From NCBI GenBank assembly GCA_934131175.1, contig CAKOZD010000016.1:8302-40301 (forward strand): DNA of 32,000 bases, given 5' to 3'. Below, one piece after another: positions 20,971 through 26,602 of this stretch (the stretch's first letter is position 1; each line of letters begins with the position of its first letter). Under the pieces are notes generated by a model. That model was not told the origin of the DNA, made no database searches, and saw nothing but the letters and a program-made list of their open reading frames with translations. This stretch comes from an uncultured Bacilli bacterium. GTDB lineage: Bacteria; Bacillota_I; Bacilli_A; RF39; UBA660. Made by a program: the position numbers and the translations under genes.

Positions 20971-21384
20971 TTATTTAGAAATATTTTGTAAGAATCCTTT
21001 AATTTTTTCATAATTATTGAAATCAATATTAAGAGATTTATTAATTAAACTAATTAACTCTTCTCTATTTAAATTCTTGTCATAACTATTATTAGATAGT
21101 GCTTTATAATGATTATAATTATCAAAATCACCATTTACTTTTTCAATAATATTGTCTTTAGAGCAAACAAGAAAAGCTAAATCAATACGTCTTAATTTAT
21201 CAAGAACTTTATCATAAGAATTAAGACCAAATGATGTACAATTATTTATATATTTATATTCAAAGAGATACCATAATATTAAAGCATCATCATTATATGT
21301 TTTATAAAATATTCCTTCTTTAACAAGAATTATTGAATGTTTGTATTGTTCCTTATACATGTCATATAAATCTTTTGATTTCAT
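20971..21384 (-). CDS. small MutS-domain-I-like protein, candidate DGR accessory factor
   Basis: ILVKEGIFYKTYNDDA...SFGLNSYDKVLDKLRRIDLAFLVCSK aligns by eye with MutS LLFYRMGDFYELFYDDA...[28 protein letters not shown]. The ATG at 21384 lies 4 nt after the RT stop. Confidence 0.55.
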   Translation of the reverse strand: MKSKDLYDMYKEQYKHSIILVKEGIFYKTYNDDALILWYLFEYKYINNCTSFGLNSYDKVLDKLRRIDLAFLVCSKDNIIEKVNGDFDNYNHYKALSNNSYDKNLNREELISLINKSLNIDFNNYEKIKGFLQNISK

Positions 21385-21388
21385 AAAC

Positions 21389-22522
21389 CTAGTTCCCTTC
21401 TTCAAGAAAAAATTTATTCTTGTATACAAAATTATTAGTAGTTGATACTTTAAAATACCCATTATAACTAGCAAGAGATTTCTTATAAAAATTAATATTA
21501 TTTTTTCTTGCTTTTCTTAACTTTCTTTTTATTTTCTTACGTGTTTGATTATTAAGTAAAATAATTAATTTTTTATTTTTTAAAATAAATTTATATCCTA
21601 AAAAATTCACTCCACTCTTTAAATTATAAATCTGTGTTTTCTTATTAAGAGATAACTTAAGAGAAGATAACTTTTTATTAATTAAATTTAGACATTTCTT
21701 TAAATATTCTTTATCATGATGAATTAAAATGAAATCATCCATATATCTAATGTAATACTTAATATGAAGATGTTCTTTTATATAATGATCAAGTTCATTC
21801 AAATAATAAATAGCAAGTAATTGACTTGTCTCATTACCAATAGGTAAACCTTTTCCTTTATGATACCTTGGTAGACTATAGAGTTGTTTTTTTCTTAACT
21901 CTAAATCATAAATATTCATATCTTCTAAGTGAGATATTTCTCTATTTATAGAACTATCTATTAAATCATTTATATAGCCATTATCAGTACTATTAATTAT
22001 ATTAATTAAAATCTTTAAAATATCTTTATCAAAATTTTCATGAGATAACTTATTAATTAATATTTCATGATCAATATTATAAAAGTACTTACTAATATCA
22101 CATTTTAAAATATAAACATTATCATAATTTTCTTTAATAGAATTAATATATTTTTTCATATATCTAATTCCTTCTTTAGAACCTTTTCCAGTTCTTGTAG
22201 CAACATTTTGTTCAATTAACTTTCTTGATAAAGTTGGTATTAAAACATATTTACTTATTAAGTGATTAACTATTTTATCATACATTAATTCACTCATTAT
22301 AATTCTATACTTAGGTTCTTTAATTATAAAAATATTATATTTAAGATGACTATAATGTTTGTTATTTAAAGTATTATATATCTTAACAATATTAGATGTT
22401 TTAGTTAATTCAAATCTTACTAGTTTTGCTTTATGACATGTATTTTTATAGATACCATCATATACATCTTTTATTTTATTAATAGAAACAATATCATTAT
22501 AAGAAATACTATATTTATTCAT
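21389..22522 (-). CDS. DGR-type reverse transcriptase
   Basis: RT motifs CDISKYFYNIDH, LPIGNETSQ (DGR-specific [I/L]GxxxSQ), YIRYMDDFIL (YxDD) and VNFLGYKF. It lies next to Avd and the TR/VR pair. Confidence 0.9.
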   Translation of the reverse strand: MNKYSISYNDIVSINKIKDVYDGIYKNTCHKAKLVRFELTKTSNIVKIYNTLNNKHYSHLKYNIFIIKEPKYRIIMSELMYDKIVNHLISKYVLIPTLSRKLIEQNVATRTGKGSKEGIRYMKKYINSIKENYDNVYILKCDISKYFYNIDHEILINKLSHENFDKDILKILINIINSTDNGYINDLIDSSINREISHLEDMNIYDLELRKKQLYSLPRYHKGKGLPIGNETSQLLAIYYLNELDHYIKEHLHIKYYIRYMDDFILIHHDKEYLKKCLNLINKKLSSLKLSLNKKTQIYNLKSGVNFLGYKFILKNKKLIILLNNQTRKKIKRKLRKARKNNINFYKKSLASYNGYFKVSTTNNFVYKNKFFLEEGN

Positions 22523-23775: not shown

Positions 23776-23863
23776 CACTCATCTGACCACTAATTAGATT
23801 AGTCCCAATTTTTTCATTCCCTCAATGATGAGTCATTTCGGGACAAGTTGTTTTCTTTTCTTA

Positions 23864-26602
23864 TTATTCAATAACATATGGATCCTCCTTCGTTCCTGAA
23901 CCTGTGAACTGAAGATTTGAAGAATCTAGATTGATCACTGGGCGAACGCCGTAGCCGCCACCGACAAAACCCCATACGCCCAACTCGCCGGAAGACGCCA
24001 CAGACAACTCGCGAGCGCCGCCATTGACGTAGAAGTGGGACGGCGACATGGTCCAATAATAGGTACCGGTATACAAATAGAATAATTGATTTTTATAACT
24101 TGTTCTTGCTCCTGCCATGTTAACTTCATCTGCTGTTATTAAACCAATTGGACTTGTTAATTTTTTGTTACCGATTGTACTATTTGTTGTTGTAAATTTA
24201 TCATTAACATTTGAACATGTTAATCTTGGTCCAGTCATTCTTCCACCCCATGAGTAGAACCTTTCATATCCATATATTGTTGGTACTGCTCCATATCCTG
24301 AATTTTGATAAGTACCACTTTTTATTGTAGATATTTCCCTATCGTTACAGAATGATGAGTTTGTTGCAATTTTATCACTATAACTTGATAAATTGTTTTT
24401 ATACCAGTTTTCTAAATATGTTTTCATATTACTATTTGTTGTATTTGATATAGCATTTTCAAGTGATGGTGATGCATACTCTACTGCTTTTACATTCATA
24501 GATGTTGGACTTACATACTTATCAACATGATTCAATCTTTGACTAGTCGATGTTGATGATGTTCCAAAAACTGTATATAATTTATCATTCGCATGCTTAG
24601 TGTTATATTCTGATAATGTCATTGCTTCAAGTGTTCCACTCAACTTAAATGCATTGTTATTTTTATCAAATGTATATTCTGTTCCAAAATAATATTTTGC
24701 TGTTGCAGACAATCCTGAATAAGTAAAAGCATAGGTCCATTCTTTTATTTCATTTGTACTGGTGTCTCCATACATATATCCAACATAAGCATTATCACTC
24801 CATCTAGAATTAAATGCACTTGTTCCTACTTGTCTATTACTACTTGATTCACCATTTGCATGAGGAGATGTTCCATCATAAATTAATCTTACTGAATTAT
24901 CTCCATTTATTCTTATAATTCTCCAATATTTGTTTGCAAACTTAACATAGTTTCCTCCAACTATTCCTCTATAATAATAACTTGTTCCTTCATCATCAGC
25001 TGTTGAATAAAGACCTGATTCTGAATTATCATAACTTAGAATTGCTGATGAATAATTATATTTAGTCAAAGTATAAGTCACTTGTTGAGTCGTCTGGTTG
25101 GTAGATGACGTTGCACTAGTTAACAAATACATTGTGTCACAAGACGTACTTGTATTTCCACATGTATAATATGTTCCATTAGAATAATCTTTGGTTGTTG
25201 GGTCTACCAATGTTGCACTCTTTAAAGTATATTTCCCAGTTGACTCTTGGAATGTGTAACCAGTATTTGTATCTGTTACTTGTGAAATATAAATATATGA
25301 CGAAGTTGATAGCGTTGATGTTTGTGTTGCATGTATTTCATTATATTTTATAGCTGGACTTGTAACATTAAAATTAGGTGTACCTTTATTTACAATTTCT
25401 TGCTTTGCTTCAGTAACATTTGTATTTTTTTGTTCTGTTGCAATTATACAATCTGAGAAATTAGTTAAATTGTTCTTCTCACACCAACTTTTATGTCTTA
25501 TTGTTGTACTCTTAGCAGTTATTTCAGATATATTTCCTGCAATATCTTCAGCATAAACTGTTGCTAAATAATCTCCTTCATCTAAACTTGTAAATGTATA
25601 ATTAGGAAATTCACTTTCAACATAAGTAGTTCCACTATCTTTACTATAGTAATATTTACTAATTCCACTAAATGAATCTTTTGCATCTACTGTAATTGTC
25701 ATAGTATCATCATTAGGTTCAATAGTAACTGTAGATATAGTTGGTTTCTCATTATCAACTTTATATTTATTACTACATCTGCTATATTCATTACCTTTAC
25801 TATCAACTGCTTTAAAACACGCCACTTGATAATCTTTATTATTTGAAAAAGCAATATTGTATTTATTGTTTGTTTTTGTTATCTCTTTTTCTGGTACACA
25901 TACTTCATCAGTTGTTACACAATATTTTGCATAAGCAATTTTTGTATCATCTAATACTTCAAAATTAAGAGATAATGTTTTATACCAATCTTCATTTCCT
26001 AATTCATGGTCGCCTAAATCATATTTAATTCTTGTACCATTTCCTGTACCATCATCTTGTACATAATTAAGAGTAAAACTTAATTTTGCATTTATATCAT
26101 TTGGAGCGTAATTATTTCCATCCTTATATTTTATCTCTATTTTTAATGTCTCTTTTGAATCTTTTTTTAATAAGTCTTTTTCTTTTATTTCATTTCCATC
26201 CGAATATTTAATTGAATATTCTAAATATTTTTGTTGTTCTTCAGTTAATTCTGTTTTAAATATTTCTGTTAGCATAGCATCAATTGATCCTGAATTAACT
26301 ACATCAACATCAAATGAATATTTATCTCCTGGACTTTCTAACGATATATCCATTGATATTGTTGTATCATTAACAATCTTTGCTGGTGTAGTTGCTTCTA
26401 CATTTCCATCATCAAATTTTATATTTGAAAAATGAATGTTCCAAGATGTTTTTGCTATATTTGCTGTTCCAGCTAATTTTAAATTACTACTTAGATATGC
26501 ATATCCTACGCCTATAGTTGACCAAGCAAATAAGATTAACGCAAAGATAAGTAATTTTTTACTATTTTTTATTGAAAAGTATTTATTTATCTTTCGTTTC
26601 AC
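23864..26602 (-). CDS. DGR target: secreted multidomain protein (TasA/camelysin-like N-terminal domain, Ig-like domain, C-terminal variable ligand-binding module)
   Basis: GTG start at 26602. The signal-anchor ends in GVGYA. The LESPGDKYSFDVDVVNSGSIDA motif is present. An Ig-like repeat lies around DNEKPTISTVTIEPNDDTMTITVDAKD. The C-terminus contains the VR. Confidence 0.85.
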   Translation of the reverse strand: MKRKINKYFSIKNSKKLLIFALILFAWSTIGVGYAYLSSNLKLAGTANIAKTSWNIHFSNIKFDDGNVEATTPAKIVNDTTISMDISLESPGDKYSFDVDVVNSGSIDAMLTEIFKTELTEEQQKYLEYSIKYSDGNEIKEKDLLKKDSKETLKIEIKYKDGNNYAPNDINAKLSFTLNYVQDDGTGNGTRIKYDLGDHELGNEDWYKTLSLNFEVLDDTKIAYAKYCVTTDEVCVPEKEITKTNNKYNIAFSNNKDYQVACFKAVDSKGNEYSRCSNKYKVDNEKPTISTVTIEPNDDTMTITVDAKDSFSGISKYYYSKDSGTTYVESEFPNYTFTSLDEGDYLATVYAEDIAGNISEITAKSTTIRHKSWCEKNNLTNFSDCIIATEQKNTNVTEAKQEIVNKGTPNFNVTSPAIKYNEIHATQTSTLSTSSYIYISQVTDTNTGYTFQESTGKYTLKSATLVDPTTKDYSNGTYYTCGNTSTSCDTMYLLTSATSSTNQTTQQVTYTLTKYNYSSAILSYDNSESGLYSTADDEGTSYYYRGIVGGNYVKFANKYWRIIRINGDNSVRLIYDGTSPHANGESSSNRQVGTSAFNSRWSDNAYVGYMYGDTSTNEIKEWTYAFTYSGLSATAKYYFGTEYTFDKNNNAFKLSGTLEAMTLSEYNTKHANDKLYTVFGTSSTSTSQRLNHVDKYVSPTSMNVKAVEYASPSLENAISNTTNSNMKTYLENWYKNNLSSYSDKIATNSSFCNDREISTIKSGTYQNSGYGAVPTIYGYERFYSWGGRMTGPRLTCSNVNDKFTTTNSTIGNKKLTSPIGLITADEVNMAGARTSYKNQLFYLYTGTYYWTMSPSHFYVNGGARELSVASSGELGVWGFVGGGYGVRPVINLDSSNLQFTGSGTKEDPYVIE
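23939..24050 (-). repeat. DGR variable repeat (VR)
   Basis: It encodes MSPSHFYVNGGARELSVASSGELGVWGFVGGGYGVRP, ending about 25 codons before the target's stop. By hand count it is about 65 percent GC. Confidence 0.9.

Follow-up and report, generated by a model that had tools for sequence, protein, structure and literature searches.

A diversity-generating retroelement of uncultured gut Bacilli with tandem template cassettes, probable alternatives for a single variable region

The stretch of DNA analysed here, 32,000 nucleotides (nt) from an uncultured Bacilli bacterium (assembly GCA_934131175.1, contig CAKOZD010000016.1; hereafter the window), carries on its minus strand a locus that is almost certainly a diversity-generating retroelement (DGR) in functional type. 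Read along that strand, the locus consists of the gene for a variable target protein, the variable region (VR) in this gene, two template repeat (TR) cassettes that each follow a leader box (TR-2, then TR-1), a structured Sp-like RNA, avd, a gene for a 131-amino-acid (aa) protein, a reverse transcriptase (RT) gene and a MutS-like (MSL) accessory gene, and the whole system sits on a genomic island (Table 1). An earlier reading of the sequence by a model (the first-pass annotation) had described the pair formed by TR-2 and the VR. Its label TR-2 implies a TR-1 (23511-23619), which was left unexplained there and which is the more unusual feature.

Table 1. Features of the retroelement locus and its surroundings, in window coordinates.
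Feature	Position	Strand	Details
Target (variable protein) gene, 912 aa	23864..26602	-	Open reading frame (ORF); VR = aa 852-888
VR	23939..24050	-	64% GC; 20/20 mismatches to TR-2 at template A; strain alleles vary at A sites
TR-2 leader box GGGACTAATC	23797..23806	-	Complementary to Sp strand 23386-23395
TR-2, cognate template of the present VR	23664..23775	-	30 A, 11 AAY codons, 52% GC
Inter-cassette spacer	23620..23663	-	TR-2 ATTTCC trailer (23658-23663) at its start; TR-1 leader box (23641-23650)
TR-1, second template cassette	23511..23619	-	108 nt from ATG (109 with the preceding C), 36 codons
Structured non-coding RNA after the last TR (Sp-like)	23301..23510	-	~210 nt, intergenic, GC above background
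avd, 117 aa	22903..23256	-	PF22296 (bAvd), E 6.5e-12, 46.3 bits vs cut-off 40
Predicted membrane protein, 131 aa	22515..22910	-	One predicted membrane segment; between avd and RT
DGR RT, 377 aa, intact	21389..22522	-	LPIGNETSQ + YMDD
MSL accessory gene, 137 aa	20971..21384	-	PF01624 MutS_I, E 3.4e-4
Non-diversified target paralog, 453 aa	26620..27981	-	28% identity over the C-terminal 390 aa; similar signal sequence
DUF5305 protein + SipW/archaeal-type signal peptidase I	28005..29787	-	PF17231; TIGR02228, 89.6 bits vs cut-off 51.85
Tyrosine integrase	30595..31683	-	On the island
Island with the whole system, ~11.7 kb	20197..32000		Tyrosine integrase; ~210-nt flanking direct repeat

TR-2 and the VR align on the minus strand at an offset of 275, with 20 mismatches over 112 positions, every one of them at an adenine of the template (minus, coding strand), and the remaining 82 positions agree throughout; the substitutions comprise 11 A>G, 6 A>T and 3 A>C. 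The template is composed of 30 A, 29 C, 29 G and 24 T; 20 of its adenines are substituted and 10 retained, and the chance that 20 randomly placed mismatches would all land on the 30 adenines is P = 4.6e-15. The pair is recovered independently by a repeat finder. All of the counts given in the first-pass annotation were reproduced, as were its translations of TR-2 and the VR and its tally of AAY codons. TR-2 is noncoding, lies outside any gene and begins 89 nt past the stop codon of the target gene. An extended comparison places the borders of the homology at CATGTCGCC at the 5' end and ...GGCTACGGCGTTCGCCCA at the 3' end, and similarity collapses directly outside CATGTCGCC...GTTCGCCCA. The last 18 nt are the same in the two repeats, divergence beginning only after ...CGCCCA; with matching 3' ends, no difference between an initiation of mutagenic homing (IMH) site and its IMH* counterpart, of the BPP-1 type, was found. 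The 3' block had been called IMH-like, which is an analogy and no more. Inspection found no conserved hairpin downstream of the VR. All that lies 3' of the VR is a 10-nt palindrome, AATCTAGATT, and inspection of two relatives (L016 and L026) shows no conservation of it. The IMH feature is known to vary among DGRs.

The protein-coding core is equally complete. The RT ORF is uninterrupted and carries the IGNETSQ and YMDD motifs that had been read from it; the protein matches RVT_1 (E 2.8e-18) and PHROG 1423 (E 1e-83), and its closest solved relative is 8ub7_A (328-aa chain, E 1.2e-22), which we take to be the Bordetella phage bRT. The pattern [I/L/V]GxxxSQ is a DGR-specific RT motif. Avd is an accessory protein of most but not all DGRs. 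The gene named Avd-like in the first-pass annotation matches the bAvd family, and also phrog_3206 (E 3e-16) and NF033474 (E 1.7e-12, 47.6 bits, under the model cut-off of 80). The gene at 20971-21384 had figured there merely as part of an interval and was not recognised as an MSL accessory gene. Its MutS_I score is marginal (21.3 bits vs cut-off 20.6) and a PDB sequence search with its product gave no match; homologues of it adjoin the RT or avd in 35 related loci. An MSL accessory class (Architecture D), defined by a small MutS-domain-I-like gene together with avd and without HRDC, was described by Wu et al. 2018 (PMC5758913), and the window locus has this constitution, with the MutS_I match being marginal. 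The adenine-only TR/VR pair, the DGR-type RT, Avd, the VR at the C-terminus of the target and a structured RNA after the TR are all in place, and the call of a complete DGR holds.

The closest homologues of the target differ from the window protein almost solely within the VR. We retrieved the contigs that encode them and compared their VRs with the available cassettes, counting mismatches at template A, mismatches at other positions, and gaps (Table 2). Five strains have a VR that derives from a TR-2-type cassette by adenine changes alone or nearly so. Across these five alleles, 21 of 26 shared template-A sites are variable vs 5 of 79 non-A sites (Fisher p = 5e-13), and three of the five variable non-A sites mirror a strain-specific change in the TR. 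The first-pass annotation had proposed testing whether VR heterogeneity is restricted to A-templated positions, and strain alleles from other metagenomes pass this test. Variation of the VR alleles at A sites indicates that the element was active in the recent past of the lineage.

Table 2. Template cassettes in the window and related loci. Cognate position is the rank in the array of the cassette that matches the VR; mismatches are those of the VR to a TR-2-type cassette (A/other/gaps).
Locus	Relation	Cassettes	Cognate position	Mismatches	Leader box / Sp strand
Window		2	1st	20/0/0	GGGACTAATC / GGTTAGTCCC
L006	close strain	5	2nd	12/0/0	
L007	close strain	at least 4			
L008	close strain	4	1st	9/0/0	
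L091	close strain	3		12/0/0	
L089	close strain	2 (other pair than window, other order)	2nd (last)	14/2/0	
L092	close strain	1			
L012	distant relative	4	4th		
L013 (Firmicutes bacterium CAG:822)	distant relative	9	5th		GGGGATTAATC / GGTTAATTCCC
L016	distant relative	7			GGGATTAACC / GGTTAATTCC
L017					GGGATTAACC / GGTTAATTCC
L018					GGGATTAGCC / GGCTAATTCC
L019	distant relative	2			
L026 (complete HiFi metagenome-assembled genome)	distant relative	3 to 4			GGGGATTAATC / GGTTAATTCCC
L030	distant relative	3 to 4			
L034	distant relative	2			
L035	distant relative	8	3rd		
L036	distant relative	5	3rd		
L037	distant relative	4	2nd		

TR-1 lies 156 nt downstream of TR-2, behind the same ~45-nt spacer. 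The cassette is in frame, contains 30 A, 10 Asn codons and 50% GC, and encodes MSPSIFNNWGNANEFNVNSSGELTNNNTGNGYSVRP; its length from the ATG is 108 nt, against 111 nt for TR-2. TR-1 bears no adenine-only relation to the window VR, and a scan of both strands of the 32-kb window with A treated as N yielded no VR for it, so that the pairing of one VR with each TR is not seen there. The two cassettes of the window are reproduced in three assemblies. TR-2 and TR-1 are orthologous to cassettes 2 and 5 of close strain L006, with 3 and 2 differences, and TR-1 is the ortholog of the last cassette in both L006 and L008; it differs from its orthologs at 1-2 of 108 nt, in a surrounding block that is 95% identical.

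Tandem cassettes recur in relatives both close and distant (Table 2), and a common spacer is present in all close-strain arrays (L006, L007, L008, L091, L089 and L092). Among loci of this clade that have a clean adenine-only pair, 12 of 33 contain more than one TR-like unit vs none of the 54 viral DGR loci with clean TR/VR pairs that served as a control. By manual tally, 61 of 63 cassette units are in frame without stops; the units have 44-54% GC in a 25% GC genome, are mostly AAY-rich, and differ in length by multiples of three. Degenerate cassettes with stops are found as the fourth of L026 and the ninth of L013. The array of L026 comes from a complete HiFi-assembled metagenome-assembled genome (MAG), and arrays are therefore not an artefact of short-read assembly.

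The intergenic region after the last TR is 70-78% identical across relatives despite being intergenic, and its consensus fold contains 60 predicted pairs, 19 of them with compensatory changes; Rfam offers no family for the TR/Sp region at the gathering cut-off or at E <= 1. Right after TR-1, this Sp RNA starts with ATTTCC (23505-23510), which pairs with an invariant AGAGGAAGT (23434-23442) ~70 nt downstream, and every internal spacer likewise begins with ATTTCC. Some 25 nt upstream of each cassette stands a box, GGGAYTAAYC, that is complementary to GRTTARTYCC in the Sp RNA (in the window, the leader boxes pair with the strand GGTTAGTCCC at 23386-23395), and the two partners covary between loci (Table 2). 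The resulting leader-Sp helix spans 11 bp and is 98.7% paired over 14 sequences, and three of its pairs show compensatory changes (10 cells). Values as high were obtained in 0 of 500 shuffles, and pairing in slid controls is 27-69%. Nearly every cassette listed retains both its leader box and its ATTTCC trailer.

These elements are arranged in two array designs, one in which full modules of leader, TR and Sp are repeated, and a compact one in which leader and TR are repeated and a single Sp is shared. L035 has a complete Sp of its own for each of its eight cassettes, and leader and Sp covary module by module; the window array, with its two cassettes, is of the compact type. Mixed arrays occur in L013 (2800-4950) and L026 (3860-4960), where compact cassette runs are interleaved with up to three Sp copies and end in a degenerate cassette. 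The leader-Sp helix corresponds to the avd:Sp 'cPRT Stop' duplex, which is essential in the Bordetella phage DGR (cryo-EM) and has been predicted in 207 other DGRs (bioRxiv 10.1101/2023.10.23.563531). One Sp domain could clamp any single cassette through the leader box and ATTTCC, consistent with the conservation of both.

The cassette that matches the VR does not hold a fixed place in the array (Table 2), and the VR slot of orthologous genes carries products of different cassette types across strains. The VR of L005 fits a cassette of another type, u4, with 16 A and 4 other mismatches vs 18 and 11 for the TR-2 type, and that of L092 does so with 15 and 4 vs 17 and 11; the VR of L090 also fits the u4 type best, less cleanly, at 14 and 7. 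In L088 the orthologous gene has a VR of 36 codons, and because adenine mutagenesis cannot take a 37-codon VR to 36 codons, this strain counts for another cassette type. As a direct product of a TR-1-type cassette the L088 VR has no more than partial support, with 16 mismatches at A and 13 elsewhere.

A further group of cassettes is A-poor (15 to 22 A) and VR-like. They are inherited from strain to strain in stable form (u1 in L006 and L091; u3 in L006, with counterparts in L008 and L091). An origin by self-homing, in which adenine-only changes would have turned an A-rich cassette into an A-poor one of its own array, was considered and rejected, since all such pairs show many non-A differences. 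Cassette 2 of L016 is identical to the VR of that locus, 100% over 105 nt (3311-3415 and 3877-3981). The match stops precisely at the borders of the cassette and leaves all 16 adenines as they are, which amounts to an exchange between VR and array without mutation.

From these comparisons we favour, with some reserve, the reading that the locus is an intact DGR with Avd and MSL on an integrase-bearing island and that its cassettes are alternative templates for the same VR. The varying position of the cognate cassette, the differing cassette types in the VR slot and the maintenance of the cassettes suggest that the extra ones have been used, at least in the lineage, and TR-1 may itself have acted as a template. 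The choice among templates may be made through alternative pairing with the Sp RNA.

Several observations weigh against alternative templating. Short-read assemblies supply most of the arrays. The cassette assignments for L005, L090 and L092 are cross-strain, with 4 to 7 non-A mismatches, which arise because the contigs do not include the strains' own cassettes. Decay is seen in several relatives: L092 (ULLK01009842.1) has lost its RT by deletion, and its VR is mismatched to the sole remaining cassette, and L004 and L090 are allelic islands without the whole core (TR, Sp, avd, RT and MSL) in which the 131-aa gene is present, the VR of L090 being GC-rich and DGR-derived and the VR-equivalent of L004 AT-rich. 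Decay of the locus is common, and the arrays could be partly relics. The VRs of L001 and L002, metagenomic copies of the window island from two independent samples, are identical though the islands differ at 10 other positions, and for this strain nothing points to diversification still under way; consensus assemblies would mask minority VR variants, and the element may be active in the strain at present. Nothing direct indicates that TR-1 ever templated the window VR, and the search for a VR matching TR-1 covered the 32-kb window. Finally, we know of no DGR in which cDNA has been shown to be primed on one cassette inside a compact array while the others are looped out.

The alternative that survives best, which we still regard as improbable, is an ordinary one-template DGR in which TR-1 and the other extra cassettes are inert by-products of unequal crossing-over, tolerated and never used. 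In its favour, TR-1 lacks a VR in the window, the number and order of cassettes change freely between close strains, decay is common, and the stop-bearing cassettes of L026 (fourth) and L013 (ninth) are degenerate. The non-cognate cassettes are nonetheless still in frame, GC-rich and AAY-rich, and keep leader box and ATTTCC, the identity and position of the cognate cassette vary, and the TR-1 orthologs are more conserved than their flanks. Inert cassettes also fit poorly with the VRs themselves: the window, L006, L008, L089 and L091 have VRs of one cassette type, those of L005 and L092 (and of L090, less cleanly) derive from a different one, and the VR of L088 falls in the other length class.

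A shade less probable again is that each extra cassette serves a remote VR of its own elsewhere in the genome and that the TRs are merely clustered. Remote targets are documented for 45 of 372 DGRs (PMC5758913), multi-TR DGRs with matching VRs have been reported (PMC6642488, PMC12386605), and our inspection covered 32 kb of this genome and ±6 kb per relative. Against this stand the A-to-N scan of the 32 kb, which yielded no VR for TR-1, and the loci with 8 cassettes, which show a single VR within 13 kb. The sole other close copy of the scaffold found by protein search, P0001-3 in L004, was tried as the remote VR for TR-1 and rejected: its VR-equivalent is AT-rich and related to none of the cassettes, with at least 30 non-A mismatches to every one, and its locus is the allelic island without a DGR. 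Moreover, the array-adjacent VR slot itself holds products of different cassette types across strains.

Least probable of the three is an array that stores silent cassettes and exchanges them with the VR by non-mutagenic homologous recombination in the manner of pilS/pilE, the RT adding point diversity afterwards and the A-poor cassettes being archived VRs. The unmutated identity in L016 and the stable inheritance of A-poor, VR-like cassettes speak for it. Against it, L016 is a single clear case from one short-read MAG, for which faithful RT copying of an A-poor cassette is an unlikely but possible alternative; no A-poor cassette can be derived by adenine changes alone from an A-rich one of its array; and every other array has a VR related to an A-rich cassette through adenine-only changes, a relation that recombination could not create.

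If the cassettes are indeed alternative templates, the process might run as follows. By analogy with the Bordetella phage DGR, an RT-Avd complex would bind the structured Sp RNA, which would pair with the box upstream of one TR (the 'cPRT Stop' analogue) and with the ATTTCC right after that TR. The RT would then copy this TR into cDNA with misincorporation opposite adenines, and the cDNA would replace the VR by way of the shared ends, ATGTCGCCGTCC at the 5' side and GGCTACGGCGTTCGCCCA at the 3' side. A switch of cassette would alter residues and length (36 or 37 codons) beyond the reach of adenine mutagenesis. A fuller version of this scheme, possible but doubtful on present evidence, is a template library in which 2 to 9 cassettes compete for one VR, the choice is made at the RNA level by clamping of leader box and ATTTCC by the complex of Sp RNA, RT and Avd, and archived A-poor variants are re-installed almost unchanged, as in L016.

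The target protein has an N-terminal signal or transmembrane segment, an Ig-like domain (aa ~300-367) and a 390-aa C-terminal domain that it shares with the neighbouring paralog. Its family matches are weak (PKD/Big_13 and OmpL47-type), and its nearest named homologue is from Ca. Pelethosoma. The C-terminal domain has more than 7000 homologues, some with DUF6273; on the VR segment itself the Pfam DUF6273 match is sub-threshold (17.2 bits vs cut-off 23.5). The AlphaFold2 models are confident, with a pLDDT (predicted local distance difference test) of 91.9 for the longer one (aa 523-912) and 87.8 for the shorter (aa 722-912). A PDB sequence search with the target gave no match, and a Foldseek search with the 390-aa model returned nothing significant. 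The 191-aa VR-bearing model (window 23867-24439, minus strand) likewise had no significant PDB match in Foldseek; its best structural match is a domain of a Thomasclavelia ramosa IgA peptidase (9qa6; E 0.067, prob 0.91, 23% identity over 103 columns), followed by weak matches to the CD23 C-type lectin (prob <=0.15), and its weak matches in BFVD, of viral proteins, include DUF6273 and DUF1566 phage proteins. On these models a lectin-like scaffold for the VR is plausible, and the 9qa6 match hints at a common host-protein-binding module in gut Bacillota. The DGR probably rewrites aa 852-888 of a secreted surface protein that is probably ligand-binding.

Upstream of both paralogs, and in the same orientation, lie the genes for the DUF5305 protein and the signal peptidase, the latter with a long N-terminal extension of multiple transmembrane segments. 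The two are likely partners of both surface proteins in secretion and processing. The signal sequences of target and paralog end in ...GYAYLSS and ...GYAFLST, which, beside a SipW-type peptidase, we take to resemble TasA-type SipW substrates. Together with the SipW context, these signal ends suggest that the protein varied by the DGR is a surface or fibre protein dependent on SipW. The 131-aa protein matched no family in searches of the Pfam, NCBIfam and PHROG type. Its gene occupies the same position in 14 related DGR loci, and it stands directly after the target, at 86-89% identity, in the DGR-less islands L004 (4352-4744) and L090 (~6970-7376); having been kept in alleles without a DGR, it probably belongs with the target and not with the retroelement. 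A promoter and terminator scan of 20800-24100 found no terminator-like sites, and promoter-like sites were no commoner there than in shuffles; its bearing on transcription units is confined to this lack of terminators.

The island is bounded by a direct repeat of ~210 nt (20197-20408, and 31899-32000 running past the window end; 1-248 in L001) that consists of the 3' end of an Rpn-like (HTH_Rpn_C) gene and the sequence downstream of it. The window is 100% identical to L001, an ENA gut-metagenome contig, and the same island is found in other samples (L002 and L003). In L002 the identity to the window stops exactly at the repeat, and the right flank is different (GerA, ParA/ParB and others); repeat-bounded ends and a different flank fit a mobile island. 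RT relatives in GTDB genomes are all from gut MAGs (uncultured Bacilli, Tenericutes, CAG:822, CAG:956 and Ca. Onthousia). No RT in IMG/VR exceeds 37% identity, which argues for a cellular and not a phage clade, and a phage origin, with no close RT among viral contigs, is unsupported. The window as a whole has 25% GC. Far from the DGR it contains a direct repeat of 141 nt (1861-2001 and 2934-3074, 87% identical, spacing 1073 nt) and a second repeat pair with the same spacing (1765-1808 and 2838-2881), which suggests two tandem paralogous genes.

The system shares with the BPP-1 DGR (mtd-VR, avd, TR, brt) the adenine-specific transfer from TR to VR, the Avd protein, the VR at the C-terminus of a binding protein, and the pairing of an upstream strand with a structured RNA downstream of the TR (here the 11-bp leader-Sp helix). 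It differs in its order (target, TRs, Sp, avd, the intervening gene, RT, MSL), in its location on a chromosomal island and not a phage, in having two template cassettes instead of one, and in its MSL gene; in addition, the repeat showed no IMH/IMH* difference, a conserved hairpin 3' of the VR was not found, and the target is not Mtd-like by sequence. Known MSL DGRs (Architecture D, the Legionella DGR and those borne on integrative and conjugative elements (ICEs) of Bacteroides) also combine Avd and a small MutS-domain-I-like protein with a surface-protein target, and the Bacteroides ones likewise use an integrative element as carrier. They are unlike the window in its host, a low-GC gut member of the Bacilli ('Tenericutes'), in its SipW-type secretion context and in its tandem TR array; the five Bacteroides Msl elements are each described with one TR.

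More than one TR per RT has been seen, and mentioned no more than briefly, in MetaCSST surveys (PMC6642488, PMC11661182) and in zeta crAss-like phages (PMC12386605). In PMC6642488 and the phages (PMC12386605), TRs are paired one-to-one with their own VRs; in PMC11661182, some VRs are matched by two or more TRs, and these TRs were treated as overlaps for removal. In the window clade, unlike these multi-TR DGRs, 2 to 9 divergent head-to-tail cassettes stand beside one VR, RNA boxes are kept for each cassette, and the cassette in use varies by strain. Silent-cassette systems such as Neisseria pilE/pilS and Borrelia vlsE have a divergent unexpressed array beside one expression site, with shared terminal homology. 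The window clade is similar in that its array adjoins one expression site, where L016 shows an unmutated copy; it is dissimilar in that transfer is adenine-mutagenic and RT-mediated in all but one case, with RT, Avd and a structured template RNA encoded at the locus. MSL-type DGRs and island- or ICE-borne DGRs are already known. In the literature searched, which included the main surveys and lay mostly outside subscription journals, we met no account of tandem cassettes that serve one VR; tandem divergent templates beside a single VR, common to a clade of gut Bacilli and equipped with per-cassette RNA boxes and a strain-dependent template, appear to be new.

DGRs are usually viewed as having one fixed template for one or more VRs, with change confined to adenine-encoded positions and the scaffold residues and the length of the VR frozen. 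If alternative templating is true, a template array lifts this limit and multiplies the sequence space within reach, offering ~10 to 11 AAY codons per cassette amid different fixed residues, in versions of 36 or 37 codons. The arrays raise the mechanistic question of template choice, and the RNA boxes are short, conserved and covarying, hence directly testable. Arrays are common in abundant uncultured Bacilli of human and animal guts and absent from the 54 phage DGRs examined, and automated DGR pipelines tend to drop or merge multi-cassette cases. For engineering, a natural multi-template DGR would be a ready design for multiplexed, switchable mutagenesis in vivo. If the extra cassettes are inert, what remains is a clean and complete DGR with recent activity, carried by a mobile island of a little-known lineage. 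If, instead, the cassettes form a library of competing templates, the element would join hypermutation to cassette switching and provide, within a DGR, a heritable memory of useful variants.

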